Of a stretch of 42,059 nt of DNA, positions 11,324 to 19,159 are shown in pieces. Below the pieces are notes generated by a model. It had not been told where the DNA came from and ran no database searches. It worked only from the letters and a program-made list of their open reading frames with translations. Made by a program: the position numbers and the translations under genes. The stretch lies in sequence record PQ641135; one strand, 5' to 3'. Position 1 is the stretch's first letter. The number at the start of each line of letters is the position of its first letter. The DNA comes from Escherichia phage HHU8.

Positions 11324-11929
11324 TTATCCTCCCCGCGCCGACTCATAGCGCCGCCAGCTCTGACGCTGACGGGCATTGAACTTTCTCTGACGTATGTGCA
11401 TACTCTGACATTGCTGTAGTGCAATAGCATACCCCGTGGCGACGCTGGCAGGGGCATTGTCGCCCACGTCATCCGCATACGCCATCATAGCTGCTTGATA
11501 AGCAATCATTCTTTGTACAGCGTTAGGCAGGTCATCCCAATCTACGTCATATGTAACTAAGCCCGGAACATCCTCAGTAAAAACAAAGGATTTGGCCTTT
11601 GCGTTGTAAAGATACCCACCTCGCGTGATACATTCGAAACCATCAGGTACGAACGCCAGCGCGTCTGCGGGATATGGGACACGTCCATCGCTCTCACGGT
11701 TGACCGTGATACGGATGTTGTTGAACCACCACCCCTCGTTGAGAACGGCCTGCCGAGACTCATCAATCTTGTCTAACGCAAGCGTTACCGATGGGTGTCG
11801 TATTTCCGTAGAGGATACGGTGTGTTCAGATAGTGCCCGAAGAACAATGTTAACTGCTTCGAGTAAAGTCATAGAACCCCCAGTGATAATCATAGAAGCC
11901 CCTCTTGCGAAGGGCTTCGAGTTTACCAT
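11324..11929 (-). CDS. tail tubular protein A (T7 gp11-like)
   Basis: 201-aa ORF between capsid and tail tubular B; ATG at 11927-11929 overlaps the capsid stop. Call based on size and synteny. Confidence 0.65.
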   Translation of the reverse strand: MVNSKPFARGASMIITGGSMTLLEAVNIVLRALSEHTVSSTEIRHPSVTLALDKIDESRQAVLNEGWWFNNIRITVNRESDGRVPYPADALAFVPDGFECITRGGYLYNAKAKSFVFTEDVPGLVTYDVDWDDLPNAVQRMIAYQAAMMAYADDVGDNAPASVATGYAIALQQCQSMHIRQRKFNARQRQSWRRYESARGG

Positions 11930-12921
11930 TAGGTCTCGGTAGTGACGACTGCCACCACGTCTGGACGACGCTGGCCCACGGTGTACATGTGGAAGCTATC
12001 CAGAACGTTGGTCAGTTCACGTTCGTCATCCCATACGCGGTTGAACAGCGGCTGGGCTTCGACAGTGACCAGAGCCAGAGACGGGTCGAAGATAATCATC
12101 TTGCGCTGAATCTCGTCGGCAGTGACGTTGAAGTCAGGGCCGAGGATGTGGTCAGTGATTGCCGCCTGCGGGAACGCGTTGCTCTCGATGATACGGATAC
12201 CGTTCACGTAAGCCACACGGCGCATTGCGAAGTCGTTGACACCACGGCCACCAGTGAACTCAACGTTCATCAGTTTCTTGTGCTCCAGCAGAATGCTGAA
12301 CCACGCCGGGTCAATCAGCGTAACCAGACGGCCAAGGTCAGCGTCGCGGCGAATGAACGCCTCGATAGCTTTCTTGTGGCCATGTACCAGCGCAGACGCG
12401 TCATCTTCCTCAGATGCCACGGTGCCAGTCAGAGTGACCTGCTCCTTGATACCTGCGTTGAACGCGCCAGCCAGAGAAGCCGGAGGCACGAAGTCAGCAG
12501 ACTTCTGGAGCTGGATGACGTGCGCTTGGTCGAACGCCTTAGCCTGAGCAGTGCCCATGTTACGGGTCAGCTCGGCACGGAAGTCCGGCGCAGTCCAGTC
12601 GTCCTGATAGTCAATCGGGATACGGATGTAGGACACGGTATCCACAGTGACAATCAGTTTCTCAGAGCGAACAGGCTGGTTGTCCAGCGCCTCGCCAGAG
12701 CGACGACCTTTAACAGTCACGGAGCCGAGACGGTCGCCACGCCAAGTGTTGGACTGGTTAGCCACAGACTTGAAGTTGGTCAGACCGGAACGGAAGATGG
12801 AGTTGTAAATGAACTGGGTCTGCACGTCACGGTCATACACCTCAAGGTGAATGTCGTTGTCAGAGTTCGCGCCACCCCAGTGTGGACGGAACTGGTTCGG
12901 GGTATAAGCGTTATCAGCCAT
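11929..12921 (-). CDS. major capsid protein (T7 gp10-like)
   Basis: 330-aa ORF following the scaffolding gene; ATG at 12919-12921 preceded by AAGGA. Size and position fit the T7-like major capsid protein. Confidence 0.75.
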   Translation of the reverse strand: MADNAYTPNQFRPHWGGANSDNDIHLEVYDRDVQTQFIYNSIFRSGLTNFKSVANQSNTWRGDRLGSVTVKGRRSGEALDNQPVRSEKLIVTVDTVSYIRIPIDYQDDWTAPDFRAELTRNMGTAQAKAFDQAHVIQLQKSADFVPPASLAGAFNAGIKEQVTLTGTVASEEDDASALVHGHKKAIEAFIRRDADLGRLVTLIDPAWFSILLEHKKLMNVEFTGGRGVNDFAMRRVAYVNGIRIIESNAFPQAAITDHILGPDFNVTADEIQRKMIIFDPSLALVTVEAQPLFNRVWDDERELTNVLDSFHMYTVGQRRPDVVAVVTTET

Positions 12922-12941
12922 GAGAAATCCTTACGAAGAAA

Positions 12942-14171
12942 TTAGTAACCTTGAGCTTTAGCCTGACGGCGCTGCTCTACCAGTACGGCGTAATGCTTGT
13001 TGTATTCCGGGGAACCAACAGGATGCGCCTGCTCAAGCCAGCCAAGATGCTGACGGAATGCCTCGTTGGTCATAACTTCACGAGGTGCTTGACCGCCACC
13101 ATTAGGCGTCAAAGTTTGTCCAGAGCGCTGAATCAAGTTCCCTGCGGAACCAGCGAACTGGAGAATGGTGTTCACTGCCAGACGTACCTGATTAGGGTCG
13201 CCGGAGTTAACAGCCGCAACAACAGCATCAATAGTGCCCTTGTCAGCAGCAGTATTGAATGCCTGTACAGCCAGACCCCATCGTTCCTCGCCGCCAGCCA
13301 TCTGGTAAACCTGCTGCTCGATTGCAGCGTCGCGCTGCTGACCAGCCGCAACCAGTGCGCCGAATTGACCTTTGAGGATTGATACAGTCTGAGGGTCGAA
13401 CTGAGCCAGATAGCGGTCGTTCACCAGAGACGGGTCACGACGCTCGTAGGCAGAACCGAACGCTGCGAGCAGGTCGATGTTCTGGCCACGGGCAATGGTG
13501 TCCATGCCTTGGAATACGGCGCGACTGGTATCGTCCGGGAAAATCTGAGCAACCTGCTCTGCGGTCAGACCACCTTCCTGAGTCGCCAGTTTCTCAGCCG
13601 TGAGGTTGGGATTCTGGAACTGCTGCGGAGGCTGGCCCGGCTGCTGCGGCTGCAACTGTTGGAAAGGCTGCGGCTGCTGCTGGGGCTGCGGTGCCTGCGG
13701 CTGGCCCGGCTGACGACCATACGGGTCGAAAGCATAAGGCTGTGGAGCTACAGGGTTCTGGAACTGCTGTGCCGGGGCCGCTTGGCCCGGTGGCGTTGCG
13801 CCCGGATTCTGATACCCATTAACCGGAATAGGTGGTGCCGCAAACGGAGAGGTCTGCTGCGGAGCACCATACGGGTTCTGCTGAGGTACGGGTGCGTAAG
13901 GACTTGGATTTCCCTGTTGGGGCTGTGCATACGGGTTGTGCTCCTGTGCAGGAATCAGGCCCGGCTGCTGTCCGAACGGCTGCACTGGCTGCGGGGTAGC
14001 GCCACCGCGAGGTAACTCGATAGGCGTACCCAGTCGGCCTAGCGCTGGGTTCTGTACCACCTGTGGGCTTCCACCATAATCATTACCGCCGTGACCAGAG
14101 GGAGCATAGGTCGGGCCAGCGGGTACGTTTTGGGGAGCGGGTGCGGCAGTAGGTTGGGATTCACCAAACAT
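12942..14171 (-). CDS. scaffolding protein with a Pro/Gln-rich low-complexity N-terminal half
   Basis: 409-aa ORF between portal and capsid; ATG at 14169-14171 preceded by GGAGAA. The first ~190 aa are extremely P/Q/G-rich (e.g. QPQAPQPQQQPQPFQQLQPQQPGQPPQQFQNP). Confidence 0.6.
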   Translation of the reverse strand: MFGESQPTAAPAPQNVPAGPTYAPSGHGGNDYGGSPQVVQNPALGRLGTPIELPRGGATPQPVQPFGQQPGLIPAQEHNPYAQPQQGNPSPYAPVPQQNPYGAPQQTSPFAAPPIPVNGYQNPGATPPGQAAPAQQFQNPVAPQPYAFDPYGRQPGQPQAPQPQQQPQPFQQLQPQQPGQPPQQFQNPNLTAEKLATQEGGLTAEQVAQIFPDDTSRAVFQGMDTIARGQNIDLLAAFGSAYERRDPSLVNDRYLAQFDPQTVSILKGQFGALVAAGQQRDAAIEQQVYQMAGGEERWGLAVQAFNTAADKGTIDAVVAAVNSGDPNQVRLAVNTILQFAGSAGNLIQRSGQTLTPNGGGQAPREVMTNEAFRQHLGWLEQAHPVGSPEYNKHYAVLVEQRRQAKAQGY

Positions 14172-14181
14172 GTATTCTCCA

Positions 14182-15747
14182 TTAAATCTGTGCGATGTTA
14201 GGCGCTACATCAACTGCGCCCGGCTGTACGCCAGCGGCGGCAGCGGCTGCATTGTCGATGGCCTGACCTTCTTGGGCCAAGTCTTGTGGCGACTTACGGT
14301 AGTCGTCCAGCGCAACACCATTGGAGGCAAAGATAACCTCAAGGACTTTCTGAGGGTCGATGGTGTTAGCAACGCCATTAATATTCTGGACAGCAACCAT
14401 TGCTGCCTGCGAGTCGGATAGCGCTCTGATAAGCGTCTCAGCTTCAATGCTTCGACCGAGGGCATCCAAGCCTGCTTCGACTTGAAGCGACAGGATGTTG
14501 CCGACGATATCTGGTACGGTGGACTCGTCAATCTCCGCGAGCAGGACATACGCCAGAGGAATTTGGAGGGTCTTAGCCTGCATTGAGTACGGCCCACCCA
14601 GCCCACGCTCGGCGCTGGTTGCTACCTGCTGCACTTCGGTGGCGGTGGTACGTTCGGAGTCACGGAACTCGCCAGTGTACATGAAGGCTTGCGCCAGTCG
14701 CTGCACAATCTGGTTGATTTCGTCACGGGCCTGTTGAACTTTCTGGTAATCCCCGACCTCCAGCCCCGACAACGTGGTGCCGTTCTGGAGTGGAATGACC
14801 TGACCAGTCTCTGCGCTCTCAATGTCATCGACGTTGCCGCCAGAACCAGTGAGCATCCACAGCACGCGCAACGCTTCCTGCATGTACAGAGCAGAATGCT
14901 CAGACAGGAGCGACAGACGTGCGAAATCCCCAGCGTGGTCTTCGACAATCCCGCGACCGTAATGCTCGCCAGACTTCAAAGACCACACTGGGAATAACCA
15001 TGGGCAGACTTTTTCAGGGTAGTAATCTTTACCGGGGGTATAGACGCAGCCTTGGTAGTTGCCAATCTGCTGCGTTACTTCGTAGCCGTAGTTGCCACTG
15101 TCCTTCTGAACGCGAAGGACACGGGTGTACAGCCACACGCGTTTGTTCCCACCGCAGCGGAAGCCTTTGGAGTTCAGCTCATTCTGAAAATCCTTCGGCA
15201 GAGAATCCCACTGGATGCGCTCCTTGATGACGGCATCCACCACAACGCCACGACCGTCGCGCTGCACCACGAAGGATTCCAATCCGTACACTCGGTACGA
15301 ACCAGTCTCCATATCGCGGTACAGCGCGGCGTTTCCGGTCACAGCTTGCTGGGCAATGCACTGGAGCAGGTCAGCGTAGCCGCCATTCTCTTTGGCTTTG
15401 TCTACGATGGCCTTCTCAATAGTGATAAGCGCCTGATTAACTTGTGACATAGACTGCCGCTGTTGGTCAGACACCTTGTTTAATTTCAGCTTCACGAATC
15501 GTGCGGAAGCCGGGAACAGGAACTCACCTAACCTAGCGGTCAGGTTGTTGACGAGCAGAGCGCCGACAGACTGGTAATCACGAGTAATCTGCTGGCGGTT
15601 CATGTCGTCCACATCACTGCGGTCATACTCGCTCACCAGCTTAGCCAGTGTGTAGCGGCTGTATTCCCGCGCTTTCGTGACAACGTTGCTATCCCGGTAC
15701 TTCTGCCACAGAGACTCATAGCTGACGTTCTGCGCGTCTTGAGTCAT
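14182..15747 (-). CDS. portal (head-tail connector) protein, T7 gp8-like
   Basis: 521-aa ORF at the head of the structural module; ATG at 15745-15747. Size and position match the podovirus portal. Confidence 0.75.
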   Translation of the reverse strand: MTQDAQNVSYESLWQKYRDSNVVTKAREYSRYTLAKLVSEYDRSDVDDMNRQQITRDYQSVGALLVNNLTARLGEFLFPASARFVKLKLNKVSDQQRQSMSQVNQALITIEKAIVDKAKENGGYADLLQCIAQQAVTGNAALYRDMETGSYRVYGLESFVVQRDGRGVVVDAVIKERIQWDSLPKDFQNELNSKGFRCGGNKRVWLYTRVLRVQKDSGNYGYEVTQQIGNYQGCVYTPGKDYYPEKVCPWLFPVWSLKSGEHYGRGIVEDHAGDFARLSLLSEHSALYMQEALRVLWMLTGSGGNVDDIESAETGQVIPLQNGTTLSGLEVGDYQKVQQARDEINQIVQRLAQAFMYTGEFRDSERTTATEVQQVATSAERGLGGPYSMQAKTLQIPLAYVLLAEIDESTVPDIVGNILSLQVEAGLDALGRSIEAETLIRALSDSQAAMVAVQNINGVANTIDPQKVLEVIFASNGVALDDYRKSPQDLAQEGQAIDNAAAAAAGVQPGAVDVAPNIAQI

Positions 15748-15749
15748 GC

Positions 15750-16010
15750 TTAGCTCCCAATGCCGAGGTTACTTGCCACACCAGTTCCGGTACGGCGGCG
15801 GCGACCACCCAGTGTGTCAGAGGCCGAGCTTACTTGGCCACCTGCCTGAATGGTTGGGGTGTTCTCACCAGCGAGGTCGGCTGCAAGGTTAGCTTGCATG
15901 GTTTCTGCCTTGACCTGCGCCGGGTCAGTCTTGATAGTGTACTGCGGCTTTTGGCTACCCAGTCCGAAGACGGAGCCAATGCCCTTGAATACTTTGCCTA
16001 CGCTACCCAT
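15750..16010 (-). CDS. small Gly-rich protein, possible virion protein
   Basis: 86-aa ORF; ATG at 16008-16010 preceded by GGAGAA; Gly-rich N-terminus (GSVGKVFKGIGSVFGLGS); immediately upstream of the portal gene. Confidence 0.4.
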   Translation of the reverse strand: MGSVGKVFKGIGSVFGLGSQKPQYTIKTDPAQVKAETMQANLAADLAGENTPTIQAGGQVSSASDTLGGRRRRTGTGVASNLGIGS

Positions 16011-16429
16011 TACGGTTTCTCCAAATCAATGAAGCGGTACTCCTGAACGTAAGGCCGCACCATATGGGAGTAACCGCACCAACGCACACCCGCTGAACGG
16101 GCCACGTCTTTGAGTACACGGAGGATGGCACGCATCACTCCACGGTTTCTGTACTGGGGCCAGACGTATGAGGCCATAACGACCACCATCTCACCCACAT
16201 GAATATCGAATAACCTGCCGATGTGAGCAACAGCCATGAGGCTGCCGTCATCGTCAGTGATGTAAACGTCAACGCAGCCGGAGGCGGTGGCCTCGTACAT
16301 GCTGTCAACAATCACATCGGGAGATAGGTCTGACCATGGCCGCTCAGCTTGAATGCCCTCGGCCACAGCACGGCGAATGTCGAGTGGCATCGTCGTGTGT
16401 GATGTATTTCCCATAGTAGACACTTTCAT
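16010..16429 (-). CDS. putative GNAT-family N-acetyltransferase
   Basis: 139-aa ORF; contains an R-x-x-G-x-G/A acetyl-CoA-binding-like motif (RNRGVMRAIL) followed by an amphipathic helix, as in GNAT motif A. Its ATG (16427-16429) lies inside a copy of the 21-bp ATGAAAGTGTCTA motif. Confidence 0.4.
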   Translation of the reverse strand: MKVSTMGNTSHTTMPLDIRRAVAEGIQAERPWSDLSPDVIVDSMYEATASGCVDVYITDDDGSLMAVAHIGRLFDIHVGEMVVVMASYVWPQYRNRGVMRAILRVLKDVARSAGVRWCGYSHMVRPYVQEYRFIDLEKP

Positions 16430-16726: not shown

Positions 16727-19159
16727 TCAGCAGAAAAACTTGCTTGATTGTTTCACAAGTTGGATATCCAGATTGCCACGCTCAGGTGCAACAGCATTGT
16801 ATCGTACAGCAAGTTGTTGAATCGGGTCATGTTGCTCATACATCTGCACGAACTTTTCACGAATGACCTTGTGGAGTAACCCGGCATGAGCTGCTGCCAC
16901 CCCGAACGAATCGTGGATAGACACCATGTACACCCCGTTATTCCACATCTCCCACAACACCTTCATCATGTGGCTGGCATCCATAGCGTGTACGAAATTC
17001 GGAGCAATCGCAGCGGCACACTTCCTGCCATCAGGCTTGTCCAGATACTCGCGCAGCTTAATGCTGTGGATACCCATGAGGTTGATGTTATTGAGCATCG
17101 TCTCCTTGCTGGCTTGATACAGGTTCACCACTCGCAGCCCTGACGGTGCAATGATTTCCACGTACTCACCGTTGGCTGCCGCCTCTACCGCGATAGCCTG
17201 CAACCATGCCATCAGCTCTGCCGCCTTCGGCACAACGCGAGGGATTGCATTCCACATGAACTCTGCGATGAACTGCGCACACTCCAGTAGGCTCTTGCCG
17301 TCCGGCAGCTTGACCCGGTTCTCACGCAGGTACAGGCAGTAGTAGTCCACCATCCCGTGTCGGGTTGCCCCGTACACGTATGTCATCACTGGCTTCTTAG
17401 CCATCGCCCGGACAATGCCGATTGAAACAAGCCACGAACCCATCTGCGTCGGTGACTGCGCTTCACTATCTTCAAGAGCCTGCATCGCCGCTGCTGCCGT
17501 CTTGAGATATATGTCTGCTTTTCTTCCCACGCTATTGATAAGATTGACAGCAGCACCTCCAACTTCATCTCGTAGCATCGCACTGAGGTGCTGGAGTCCT
17601 GAACAGGTAGCATCCCATTGCGTGACCACTCGGCAGGGATAAGTCTCAGGATTTCCTGAGTCGATAGCGCGAATGAGTTCAACAGAGGCAGCCCACGCGC
17701 TGATAGGGCTATCGGCCTCTGACCAGAACGAATCAAATGCCTCTGGAAGACGGCACGCCTCACGTAGTCGGGGGAGTGTCTTGTCCGTCCACGCCGCCCG
17801 GTCGTCGAAGTCTGTTGCGTCGTAGCCGAAGCAATTCGCAACATGAACCTTGAGCCAGAACAGCCCCTCAGTTCCGAGAGCCACTGGTTCCGCAAGCTCA
17901 AGCAGCGCTCGCACCGCGTCGATAGACTGAGGATTAAGGGTCGAAGAATAATAAATTCGGCCCCGCGTATCGGCGTAAGTCGGGAGATAAATCCTATCGT
18001 ACTGCGCATACCTGTCTGCCTCTTTGACTGCACCATTCAGCGCCAGCATCTGTGACGTGAACTTACGCAACTCATTGTAATACAAGCGAGTCTTCACCTT
18101 GTACTCATGAGCTTCGGCATCCATCTGCTGCTGCATCTCTGGTGGGAACTTGCTGATGTACTGTGCAAAGCTCACACCAGCCGGGATGGTAAACGGAAGT
18201 GTAGGTTCACGAGGCGGCACAGGCAGCCCCATAACGCCTGTACGGTTCGTTCGCAGGAACTCCAGTACCATTGGGTTAACTCGGTACGGAACGCTGCTGA
18301 GCATCATACACGGCTCTATAACGGGGGTAGGGTCAACGTTCAATGCACGATACCCTTTATGGTTCATGCGGCTCATTACCCGGTACATCGCTGCCTGCCC
18401 ATCTGAATGCCACATACCGCTGCGACCGTTAGGTGCAATCTGCTTCGGCGGGATAATCAGTGGTGGGCAGCACATGCCATCAGCACGCGGCATGTCCAAC
18501 CAGTCATTCATCGTAGCCAGCACATCCTCGTGCAATGCAAAGTGTGCCGTACCGCGCTGGCGCTGGTTGCCTCCGACACGAATCGTGGACACCAGACCAG
18601 TTGGCTCAACGCACTTCATCATAAGCTTGCCAATGGTAATCAGCGCACGCTGCGGCAGCACATCAATCTCCACCCCAACGTTCGCCGCCGACGCACGCGC
18701 TTTGTTGTAGACGTGGTTCGCTGACTTCGAGCGAGACTTCTTCACGTCCTGCTTAACGCGCTCCATGTACGCCGCCTGCTGCGGCCCGGTCTGCTTCGCC
18801 CGGAGGTACACCACCTCAGCCATCAGTGCCTTGCCCATGCTCTTGAGCAGACTCAGTACCGCCTGCTCCGACGCAGCACCGGACACCGCCATGCTCAGTG
18901 CAAGAGAGGCACACGCTTTGGTGCCAATCTCACGCATGTACGTCCGGTACTGCGCACCATACCCACGGGTCGTTTCGCTCAGGGTTTCTTGCATCGCAGC
19001 TTCGACCAGAGGATAAGCCTCAACCATCATACGCTGGAGCAACGGCACCGACCCGGCGCGGCCACTGGCCATCGCCTCTTTGATATTATCCAGCCAGCCC
19101 TCGCGGTGTCTGGCTCGCGCTTCTTCTTCAAGTCGAATCTGCTCTGCAAGTAAATCCAC
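16727..19159 (-). CDS. single-subunit DNA-dependent RNA polymerase (T7 RNAP family)
   Basis: 810-aa ORF with hallmark motifs: DATCSGLQH (motif A), VMTYVYGAT (motif B region), HDSFG (motif C). Start is GTG at 19157-19159, 5 nt after a perfect AAGGAG. Confidence 0.9.
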   Translation of the reverse strand: MDLLAEQIRLEEEARARHREGWLDNIKEAMASGRAGSVPLLQRMMVEAYPLVEAAMQETLSETTRGYGAQYRTYMREIGTKACASLALSMAVSGAASEQAVLSLLKSMGKALMAEVVYLRAKQTGPQQAAYMERVKQDVKKSRSKSANHVYNKARASAANVGVEIDVLPQRALITIGKLMMKCVEPTGLVSTIRVGGNQRQRGTAHFALHEDVLATMNDWLDMPRADGMCCPPLIIPPKQIAPNGRSGMWHSDGQAAMYRVMSRMNHKGYRALNVDPTPVIEPCMMLSSVPYRVNPMVLEFLRTNRTGVMGLPVPPREPTLPFTIPAGVSFAQYISKFPPEMQQQMDAEAHEYKVKTRLYYNELRKFTSQMLALNGAVKEADRYAQYDRIYLPTYADTRGRIYYSSTLNPQSIDAVRALLELAEPVALGTEGLFWLKVHVANCFGYDATDFDDRAAWTDKTLPRLREACRLPEAFDSFWSEADSPISAWAASVELIRAIDSGNPETYPCRVVTQWDATCSGLQHLSAMLRDEVGGAAVNLINSVGRKADIYLKTAAAAMQALEDSEAQSPTQMGSWLVSIGIVRAMAKKPVMTYVYGATRHGMVDYYCLYLRENRVKLPDGKSLLECAQFIAEFMWNAIPRVVPKAAELMAWLQAIAVEAAANGEYVEIIAPSGLRVVNLYQASKETMLNNINLMGIHSIKLREYLDKPDGRKCAAAIAPNFVHAMDASHMMKVLWEMWNNGVYMVSIHDSFGVAAAHAGLLHKVIREKFVQMYEQHDPIQQLAVRYNAVAPERGNLDIQLVKQSSKFFC

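Follow-up and report, generated by a model that had tools for sequence, protein, structure and literature searches.

In P22, the scaffolding protein gp8 binds the coat protein through a C-terminal U-shaped hook, a helix-turn-helix; it also has a helical column and flexible segments, and one of its ends touches the portal (PMC12005531; bioRxiv 10.1101/539965). How scaffold is organized inside the procapsid is poorly resolved, much of the protein being flexible (PMC12005531). P22 gp8 is a functional analogue of the protein described here; no sequence or fold match between the two was detected, and gp8 is without a long Pro/Gln (P/Q) tract. T7 gp9 is encoded at the same position between portal and capsid and has the same two-part plan, with Pfam covering residues 123-305 and a low-complexity region before them. 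The T7 arm, however, is strongly acidic (E 18%, D 11%), in contrast to the uncharged P/Q arm of the Escherichia phage HHU8 scaffold. The scaffolds of phiKMV-like phages (PAXYB1, 322 aa; KP34 gp41, 280 aa; LIMEzero ORF39, 387 aa) share the gene position, a homologous helical core and C-terminal hairpin (25-74% identity to HHU8), and, as in HHU8, a Pro-rich low-complexity N-terminal arm with short motifs of the [VLI]P[PA]G type. In the literature on Bonnellvirus, LIMEzero scaffolding, and phiKMV proline-rich scaffolding, we found no description of a P/Q-rich arm, and the Bonnellvirus papers found do not mention the scaffold.

Here we analyzed the scaffold gene of HHU8 in a window of 42,059 nucleotides (the whole stretch of DNA in record PQ641135), to which all coordinates refer. 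The arm of this scaffold is an unusually long, tyrosine-rich version of a common family feature and not a new kind of protein.

The scaffold gene and its family

The open reading frame at 12942-14171 on the minus strand (409 aa, about 43.5 kDa) encodes a genuine full-length head-scaffolding protein of the phiKMV-like family. The HHU8 genome belongs to Bonnellvirus (Autographiviridae), with 98.5% nucleotide identity to Escherichia phage megetsur. The scaffold gene lies directly downstream of the portal (head-tail connector) gene (14182-15747, minus strand; Pfam Head-tail_con PF12236 1.6e-50, PHROG 449 2.4e-138) and directly upstream of the major capsid protein gene (11929-12921, minus strand; PHROG 267 1.4e-79, with a weak Pfam Gp10A-like match). 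All three genes are on the minus strand, and their order is the same in megetsur, LIMEzero, KP34, PAXYB1, and T7. The protein matches the profiles PHROG 36307 (3.4e-213, residues 1-409) and PHROG 1018 (1.9e-15, residues 133-409), and public genomes already list the homologous gene of megetsur and other relatives as a scaffolding protein. These matches, the synteny, and the annotation in 98.5%-identical phages uphold the assignment made in a preliminary description of this DNA.

A Foldseek search of the HHU8 model against BFVD, in which a prediction is compared with predictions, gave 17 matches at E<=1e-3. Sixteen are annotated as scaffold or capsid-assembly proteins of short-tailed phages, among them those of LIMEzero (2.8e-29), RSB3, phi2, and LIMElight, and one has no name. 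Foldseek also matched the capsid assembly protein of the T7-like phage phi15 (E 0.013, probability 0.98), and hhalign of HHU8 against the T7 gp9 family gave E values of 0.0028-0.0041 at a probability of only 8-11%, with an AGGxE(R)W/F motif in register. No match to PF05396 (Phage_T7_Capsid) was obtained with the full HHU8 protein at E<=0.1 or with its C-terminal domain at E<=1, whereas T7 gp9 scores 6.6e-76. Against the PDB, Foldseek found nothing below E=2, and a sequence search with two profiles returned only non-significant compositional or helical matches, to Nup54 (E 0.028) and to the galectin-3 N-terminal domain.

The predicted structure falls into four parts. In an AlphaFold2 model built from 66 sequences (an earlier input of 15 sequences was too shallow, with a mean pLDDT of 45), pLDDT is 30-44 over residues 1-199 and the arm has no helices, whereas the helical C-terminal part reaches 65-91 (residues 200-344 and 369-406). 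The arm also falls on the disordered side in charge-hydropathy (0.389, below the boundary of 0.417), and the two results agree with the earlier claim of a disordered N-terminal half. A helical core domain conserved across the family follows (13140-13601, minus strand, residues 191-344), with helices at 192-343 and pLDDT of 65-89 from residue 200; the alignment with phiKMV-, KP34-, and Proteus-type scaffolds begins at about residue 192-233 and continues through the C-terminus. After a short linker predicted to be flexible (NLIQRSGQTLTPNGGGQAPR; 13080-13139, minus strand, residues 345-364, pLDDT <50, without secondary structure), the protein ends in a predicted helix-turn-helix that is basic at its end (12954-13067, minus strand, residues 369-406). 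Its helices, 369-382 and 388-406, have a pLDDT of about 90, and L397 and R401 are invariant. Following the hook of P22 gp8, we infer that this element is a coat-binding hook, a role drawn by analogy only because the predicted fold is without a solved counterpart.

To place the arm within its family, we used a set of 171 cluster representatives (E<=1e-3) from a search with the C-terminal domain alone; arm statistics were taken over 139 phiKMV-like scaffold representatives. The earlier view that such a sequence is unusual in a scaffolding protein did not survive this comparison. A P/Q/A-rich N-terminal tract is the norm in the 139 representatives, with a median arm of 75 aa (typically 60-87 aa) and 30% P+Q, and T7 gp9 too has a 122-aa low-complexity, in its case acidic, N-terminus outside the Pfam domain. 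The first 138 aa of the PAXYB1 (Phikmvvirus) scaffold, for example, contain 24% P, 15% A, and 14% Q. What is unusual in HHU8 is the length of the arm, its aromatic content, and its organization into short motifs, P-[Y/F] repeats, and a hypervariable spacer. The HHU8 arm has 190 aa and 45% P+Q; none of the 139 reaches that length and 4% reach that P+Q content. Aromatics make up 7.9% of it, against a family median of 1.8% (1.4% of the 139 reach 7.9%). Compared with the phiKMV-like family, it has twice the Gln, four times the aromatics, and fewer acidic residues. The estimate of roughly 100 extra residues was sound, as 409 aa is 120 above the family median of 289 and 102 above T7 gp9 (307 aa), and the comparison with related scaffolds that had been proposed shows that Bonnellvirus phages and LIMEzero share the long arm.

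Translation and selection

Judged from its conservation, the arm is translated and under purifying selection. A Shine-Dalgarno GGAG (14177-14180, minus strand) precedes the ATG at 14169-14171 by 5 nt, next to the portal stop codon at 14182-14184. LIMEzero and 8 Bonnellvirus relatives have it at this spacing, and the more distant scaffold genes of KP34, PAXYB1, Proteus 309, and T7 are likewise preceded by GGAG or GAGG. In 15 diverged sequences the reading frame is open through the 190 arm codons, and every indel preserves it. Of the gapped columns in the Bonnellvirus alignment, 24 fall in residues 131-190 and 1 in residues 1-130, with none in the C-terminal domain. The dN/dS ratio is 0.15-0.27 for residues 1-190 and 0.03-0.10 for the C-terminal domain, and purifying selection is 2-4 times weaker on the arm than on the core; for residues 1-60 it is 0.05-0.10 (against usur, Kc261, and ROV85).

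The same data bear on whether the annotated start is an artefact, the real one lying downstream and the P/Q tract being an untranslated leader or a segment translated only occasionally. This was the point on which the preliminary description had made its reading depend, and we consider it highly improbable. An in-frame ATG past the arm does exist at residue 223, and an internal Met was taken as the start of one database cluster (P0015, 305 aa). However, M223 is invariant, lies within a conserved core helix, and is without a good ribosome-binding site, and P0015 merely begins at the residue equivalent to 96 of the near-identical P0009 (396 aa). The conserved GGAG and ATG, the exclusively in-frame indels in a frame that is open throughout, and the dN/dS of the arm all argue for the upstream start.

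Overlapping genes were also considered, such as the open reading frame at 13509-14015 on the plus strand (168 aa). This was dismissed because the tract shows no reduction in synonymous divergence and because such frames are a Leu/Arg-rich mirror image of the CAG and CCG codons of the scaffold.

Composition, motifs, and repeats of the arm

The arm (13602-14171, minus strand) corresponds exactly to codons 1-190 of the scaffold gene. It is P/Q/G/A-rich, nearly uncharged, and predicted to be disordered, with 46 P (24%), 39 Q (21%), 21 G (11%), 20 A (11%), and 11 N (6%), and its charged residues are limited to 2 D, 3 E, 3 R, and 0 K. In 40-residue windows, P+Q peaks at 29/40 in the arm, the next best stretch on the coding strand of the 42-kb genome reaching 13/40. 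Typical prion-forming domains are Q/N-rich and of low charge, with few prolines, and a proline content as high as this is incompatible with them. The term prion-like, applied to the arm earlier, is a poor fit by composition (no dedicated predictor was used), as Q at 21%, N at 6%, and low charge are accompanied by P at 24%.

The sequence of the arm is more than a biased composition. In 20,000 shuffles, the placement of aromatics after proline (8 of 15; P=0.011), the share of arm Asn found in N-P dipeptides (7 of 11; P=0.005), and the spacing of Y81, Y92, Y101, F110, and Y120 by 9-11 residues (P=0.002) all stood out, while the evenness of aromatic spacing over the whole arm was marginal (P=0.053). 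In distant homologs, aromatic positions are kept at 0.62, compared with 0.42 for other residues (P=0.028).

Several conserved islands can be recognized. V-P-A-G (residues 16-19; 14115-14126, minus strand) is an instance of the family-wide motif [VLI]P[PA]G, present in 34/140 family representatives where shuffles lead one to expect 6, at a median position of 12. The most conserved island, VVQNPALGRLGTPIELP (residues 38-54; 14010-14060, minus strand), has V39, N41, P42, A43, L44, G45, and P54 invariant across 15 sequences with identities as low as 57%, and mean column identity over residues 37-56 is 0.75. A related motif, NP[MA]L[SG]x[LM], occurs in 9/140 family representatives against 0.4 expected. 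TPPGQAAP (residues 126-133; 13773-13796, minus strand) has P127, Q130, and P133 invariant and G129 nearly so in the 15 sequences; in the alignment of 66 sequences, conservation of P127 and Q130 is also 90% or higher, although these columns are not independent because 51 of the 66 sequences, the more distant family members, are largely KP34-like. MAFFT aligned residues 38-54 with GGPxIPG and residues 126-133 with (A/P)PNxQGVP of KP34-like scaffolds, an equivalence with short-armed scaffolds that rests on alignment through low-complexity sequence and may be spurious. An aromatic island, PYAFDPYG (residues 145-152; 13716-13739, minus strand), still has aromatics at positions 146, 148, and 151 in 8-9 of 9 distant homologs, and P150 is invariant.

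Between the second and third of the motifs aligned across the family lie five degenerate repeats of about 10 residues, each with x-P-[Y/F] or G-Y (residues 77-120; 13812-13943, minus strand). Their aromatics Y81, Y92, Y101, F110, and Y120 are 11, 9, 9, and 10 residues apart, and N79, P80, Y81, Y92, Q97, N99, P100, Y101, G102, S108, P109, A111, A112, and P114 are fully or almost fully conserved. This array is absent from the short-armed members. KP34-like scaffolds match the two motif islands in the alignment and are gapped across residues 55-125, and the repeat segment thus appears, from this alignment, to have been inserted between two family-wide motifs.

The remainder of the arm is a hypervariable poly-(Q/P) spacer (residues 153-190; 13602-13715, minus strand) with the highest dS and the lowest conservation. 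It includes a 38-nt GGCTGC hexamer array detected by TRF at 13666-13703, and the usur record carries a repeat_region annotation at the corresponding place. A recent tandem DNA duplication is not supported as the source of the extension, this array being all that TRF shows.

One could imagine that the arm as a whole is only a passive spacer, an entropic bristle or volume filler without partners, for which composition and length matter and sequence does not. P/Q linkers do serve as flexible tethers in bacterial proteins such as ZipA. Residues 153-190 fit this description, as length variation, the highest dS, and the lowest conservation are all found there, and across the family arms are 0 to 187 residues long and little conserved in sequence. 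For the arm as a whole this is possible but unlikely: residues 1-152 contain islands that are invariant over 57-100% identity, the dN/dS of residues 1-60 is as low as that of the folded core, aromatic positions are preferentially kept, and the motifs are enriched well above shuffles.

The preliminary description also raised a fused second function, in which the N-terminal half would be a module acquired from the host or another gene, such as a host-factor binder or a virion internal protein. The arm is long enough for a module and has conserved islands, and dS differs between the two halves of the protein in comparisons with smaasur and Lidtsur, for which reason mosaicism is possible. Nevertheless, we found this origin very unlikely. 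The arm has no Pfam or other domain match, no structure is predicted for it, and there is no independent homolog; all homologs of the full protein also carry the scaffold core. The family motifs are apparently at equivalent positions in short-armed relatives, as judged by alignment through low-complexity sequence. A blastn search of the arm DNA against 5,426 complete E. coli genomes gave no match, which leads us to reject a recent capture from the host or a prophage. With the arm alone as query, nothing was retrieved from 5.8 billion proteins; because even the identical protein was missed, presumably through composition filtering, this negative result is uninformative as to independent homologs.

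Possible roles in procapsid assembly

We favor, with moderate confidence, the interpretation that HHU8 encodes a true family-type scaffold whose arm was expanded in place and would reach flexibly into the procapsid interior, where its contacts would be weak and multivalent. Its architecture is the usual one of the family: a proline-rich arm predicted to be disordered, then about 150 residues of helical core, a short linker, and a C-terminal helix-turn-helix that presumably hooks the coat. In Bonnellvirus, Waewaevirus/LIMEzero, and a few metagenomic relatives, the arm would have grown from about 75 to about 190 residues. The family motifs VPAG (16-19), NPALG..TPIxLP (41-54), and PPGQAAP (127-133) were apparently retained, and new sequence would have been placed between and after them. 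The apparently equivalent places of these motifs in short arms are what points to expansion in place. A first addition would have supplied the five repeats of about 10 residues and the further island that carries conserved P-Tyr/Phe, and a second the poly-Q/P spacer, whose length appears free to vary. Counting against this interpretation are the weaker purifying selection on the arm than on the core, the marginal overall evenness of the aromatics, the low-complexity sequence through which the motifs were aligned, and the lack of a solved counterpart for the predicted fold.

How the arm is oriented, what it binds, and whether it self-associates are matters of inference. The arm would point into the procapsid interior, and its Pro/Gln backbone would hold it extended, soluble, and uncharged. 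The conserved aromatics and short motifs may then make many weak contacts, either between scaffolds or between scaffold and the portal or internal core. Such contacts would concentrate and organize the scaffold during shell assembly, and exit of the scaffold at DNA packaging would still be possible because the arm is unfolded.

Similar features are found in two unrelated systems. The galectin-3 N-terminal domain, which self-associates, has uncharged Pro-rich (Pro/Gly/Tyr) repeats with regularly placed aromatics, as does the HHU8 arm, although its repeats are Gly-rich and not Gln-rich. It was the sole PDB sequence match of the full-length profile, and the likeness does not amount to homology because the match is compositional and non-significant (E=0.17). 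In adenovirus, the L1-52/55K protein is absent from the mature particle, and the disordered region of 52K is the driver of condensate formation. Like the HHU8 scaffold, this is a viral assembly protein, and packaging and capsid assembly are coordinated by the condensates of 52K (PMC10897327). However, it is unrelated in sequence, belongs to a eukaryotic virus, and is regulated by phosphorylation.

The aromatics could act as stickers in a Pro/Gln spacer and make the scaffold phase-separate, a dense droplet then nucleating and filling the procapsid in a phage counterpart of the adenovirus 52K condensates. The 15 Tyr/Phe of the arm, partly regular and conserved, in an uncharged P/Q/G background, an aromatic content four times the family median, the galectin-3 match, and the condensates of adenovirus 52K are consistent with this proposal, which we nonetheless judge quite unlikely. 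The literature on scaffold, phase separation, procapsid, and phage yielded no case of a phage scaffold, and the overall evenness of the aromatics is marginal. Moreover, most relatives build a T=7 capsid of the same size with a 75-residue arm almost without aromatics, and condensation can therefore not be essential to the family mechanism. We regard with considerable doubt the further proposal that such a droplet would recruit coat through the C-terminal hairpin and nucleate procapsids, which would make it the first condensate-driven capsid assembly in a bacteriophage.

The HHU8 scaffold arm is, in our interpretation of an arm expanded in place, an unsurprising elaboration of a known protein type. 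From a biological perspective, the family offers a natural series of arm lengths, from about 30 to 190 residues, on the same core and in the same T=7 shell, and in its long-armed clade a conserved array of aromatic repeats is present in addition. The role of a disordered arm, as a spacer, as a tether to the portal or core, or in self-association, thereby becomes testable by swaps and deletions. If the condensate proposal were true, long and short arms could be compared within one protein family, and if the arm self-associates, phage assembly would be linked to the condensate-assisted assembly of adenovirus.

The scaffold gene and its start

At 42,059 bases, the HHU8 record is a near-complete phage genome, and every gene lies on the minus strand. 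Its structural region shares 98.5% DNA identity with Escherichia phage megetsur and related 'sur' phages (genus Bonnellvirus, family Autographiviridae). Read along that strand, the RNA polymerase gene (16727-19159) comes first and small ORFs come next. The order continues with a 139-aa GNAT-type acetyltransferase-like protein (16010-16429; Pfam Acetyltransf_1, 6.3e-5; PHROG 3986, 5.8e-37), an 86-aa virion protein (15750-16010), the portal (14182-15747; Pfam Head-tail_con, 1.6e-50), the 409-aa scaffolding protein (12942-14171), the major capsid protein (11929-12921; PHROG 267, 1.4e-79), and tail tubular proteins A and B. The GNAT-like gene, between the RNA polymerase and structural genes, is kept in all Bonnellvirus relatives. 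The start of tail tubular protein A is ambiguous: the longest ORF (11324-11929, minus strand) encodes 201 aa and adjoins the capsid stop codon, and related records annotate 549-, 570- or longer versions. On the plus strand, a 346-aa antisense ORF (11905-12945) covers the entire capsid gene. A second one of 168 aa (13509-14015), opposite the Pro/Gln tract, is Leu/Arg-rich and mirrors the CAG/CCG codons.

The ORF between the portal and capsid genes matches PHROG 36307 ('head scaffolding protein') over its full length (3.4e-213) and the broader PHROG 1018 over residues 133-409 (1.9e-15), which confirms its earlier assignment as the scaffolding gene; a Pfam search of the 409-aa protein gave no match. 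Public records already contain near-identical genes with a scaffolding-protein annotation, and the literature on Bonnellvirus and phiKMV-like phages, as far as searchable, does not discuss the arm.

The arm (13602-14171) is precisely codons 1-190. The ATG at 14171, 10 nt past the portal stop codon, has a Shine-Dalgarno-type GGAG 5 nt ahead of it. This arrangement recurs in eight Bonnellvirus relatives and in phage LIMEzero, and GGAG or GAGG also precedes the scaffold start in KP34, PAXYB1, Proteus phage 309, and T7. In comparisons with relatives at dS 0.3-0.5, dN/dS is 0.19-0.21 over residues 1-190, 0.05-0.10 over residues 1-60, and 0.06-0.10 over residues 191-409, so the arm is under purifying selection. 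Length differences among relatives are in frame without exception; 24 gapped columns fall in residues 131-190 and a single one in residues 1-130, and the C-terminal half has no gaps. The first in-frame ATG downstream of the tract, M223, is an invariant residue of a conserved helix and lacks a good ribosome-binding site. Together, the conserved GGAG/ATG, the selection pattern, the in-frame indels, and the poor context of M223 argue against the internal start that the preliminary description had raised. The arm is translated; that the tract is left untranslated is contradicted by the selection on residues 1-190 and is very improbable.

Composition and motifs of the arm

The Pro/Gln/Gly-rich tract is real: residues 1-190 contain 24% P, 21% Q, 11% G, 11% A, and 6% N, with just eight charged residues, and P+Q peaks at 29/40 versus 13/40 for the runner-up stretch on the coding strand of the whole window. 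At 24% proline, a prion-like amyloid is unlikely, and the earlier comparison with prion-like sequences fits poorly. The arm has order beyond its composition. In shuffle tests, Pro precedes 8 of the 15 aromatics (P=0.011), 7 of the 11 Asn stand directly before Pro (P=0.005), and Y81, Y92, Y101, F110, and Y120 are spaced by 9-11 residues (P=0.002).

Across 15 homologues, with identity down to 57%, invariant or near-invariant arm residues fall into islands (V39, N41, P42, A43, L44, G45, L53, P54; N79, P80, Y81; Y92; Q97, N99, P100, Y101, G102; S108, P109, A111, A112, P114; P127, G129, Q130, P133, Q136; F148, P150). Of all residue classes, aromatics are conserved best: positions 81, 92, 101, 110, 120, 146, 148, and 151 retain an aromatic in the nine most divergent homologues, at 0.62 versus 0.42 for other residues (P=0.028). 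It is rather unlikely that the arm is a purely passive spacer, a reading consistent with residues 153-190 but at odds with these islands.

Some motifs extend to the family. [VLI]P[PA]G around position 12 (V16-P-A-G19 in HHU8) occurs in 34 of 140 representatives versus 6 expected, and NP[MA]L[SG]x[LM] in 9 versus 0.4. In a 66-sequence alignment, which needs caution because of its low complexity and majority of KP34-like rows, KP34-like GGPxIPG aligns with residues 47-54 and (A/P)PNxQGVP with residues 126-133, and these scaffolds are gapped over residues 55-125. The comparison suggests that the short family motifs were retained but became separated by an insertion of P-Tyr/Phe repeats, some 70 residues in all, and that a variable poly-Q/P spacer was added ahead of the core.

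The tract contains no recent DNA tandem repeats except a 38-nt GGCTGC array (13666-13703), which encodes Q-P in the hypervariable spacer. At the matching place, the usur record (L002, 3288-3337) carries a 50-nt repeat_region annotation; together, these suggest that slippage drives spacer length change. The forsur record also has a repeat_region somewhere under the matched stretch. Synonymous divergence over residues 1-190 and 191-409 was 0.40 and 0.99 against smaasur and 0.69 and 1.40 against Lidtsur; against usur, Kc261, and ROV85, it was closer (0.45-0.51 and 0.30-0.37). The roughly two-fold difference seen with smaasur and Lidtsur may reflect within-gene recombination or codon constraints in the CAG/CCG tract.

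The arm across the scaffold family

With the C-terminal domain alone as query against 1.84 billion cluster representatives, we found 171 relatives and retrieved sequences for 150, in each of which the arm was measured as the region ahead of the conserved domain. Almost all have Pro/Ala/Gln-rich N-termini. Among 139 representatives outside the long-armed clade of HHU8, the median arm is 75 aa (interquartile range 60-87), and none reaches the 190 of HHU8. Median composition is 19% P (HHU8 24%, reached by 21% of representatives), 9% Q (21%, reached by 11%), 30% P+Q (45%, reached by 4%), 1.8% aromatics (7.9%, reached by 1.4%), and 6.3% acidic residues (2.6%, reached by 91%). The first 138 residues of the Phikmvvirus PAXYB1 scaffold are 24% P, 15% A, and 14% Q, whereas T7 gp9 has its own 122-residue N-terminus, acidic and outside the Pfam domain. 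A disordered low-complexity arm is thus normal for scaffolds in this phage family, as is a Pro-rich one within the phiKMV-like branch. Contrary to the earlier suggestion, the tract is therefore not unusual for a scaffolding protein; by the same comparison, HHU8 is an outlier by degree, not by kind.

The extension is conserved in the nearest neighbors: a search of 5.8 billion proteins gave 17 long-armed clusters, Pantoea phage LIMEzero (387 aa) among them. Intermediate arms of 124-132 residues with differing composition occur in separate lineages (family proteins P0025, P0043, and P0130), so expansion probably occurred more than once. The Pectobacterium phage Peat1 scaffold is 363 aa in whole length. 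A 184-aa partial protein deposited under Cutibacterium acnes (P0166) shares 74% identity with the scaffold core; its most likely source is a phage contaminant in that assembly.

Predicted structure and possible role

An AlphaFold2 model built from the 66-sequence alignment, shallow over the arm itself, gave no secondary structure for residues 1-199 (pLDDT 30-44), a helical domain at 200-344 (65-89), a flexible linker at 345-364 (below 50), and a helical hairpin at 369-406 (about 90). The low values are meaningful because the contrast arises inside one model. By charge-hydropathy, residues 1-190 fall on the disordered side of the boundary (0.389 versus 0.417), in agreement with the disorder first suspected, and residues 191-409 plot as folded. 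Foldseek found nothing in the PDB and 17 matches at E<=1e-3 among predicted viral structures, 16 of them annotated as scaffold or capsid-assembly proteins from short-tailed phages and one without a name; the next was the T7-like capsid assembly protein of phage phi15 (E 0.013). T7 gp9 shows weak profile-profile similarity to the HHU8 protein (E 0.003-0.004, probability 8-11%); in that alignment, a common AGGxE(R)W/F motif is matched up and the gp9 Pfam domain starts opposite approximately residue 219. The suggested fused second function was not borne out: a foreign module is highly doubtful, as we found no domain, independent homologue or host match for the arm, and its motifs are shared with the family.

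In P22, the scaffold grips coat protein through its C-terminal hook, oligomerises through helical parts, and touches the portal with its other end (PMC12005531). By analogy, the HHU8 hairpin would attach to the capsid protein, with the arms projecting inward. A Pro/Gln chain without charge would remain extended and soluble, and its conserved motifs and approximately ten conserved aromatics could make many weak contacts among scaffold copies packed in the procapsid or, alternatively, with the portal and internal core. Being unfolded, the arm would not hinder exit during DNA packaging. We consider a flexible interior arm making weak contacts, as a whole, somewhat probable, its self-association part being much less certain than the remainder. 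The aromatic pattern makes it attractive to suppose that the arm drives condensate formation, for which adenovirus 52K, an assembly protein, sets a precedent (PMC10897327), but short-armed relatives build the same shell, evidently without needing a condensate, and we regard this as improbable.

The HHU8 arm is an extreme, aromatic-rich expansion of the disordered arm typical of its family, and its worth lies in the natural length series it offers for probing the function of scaffold disorder.
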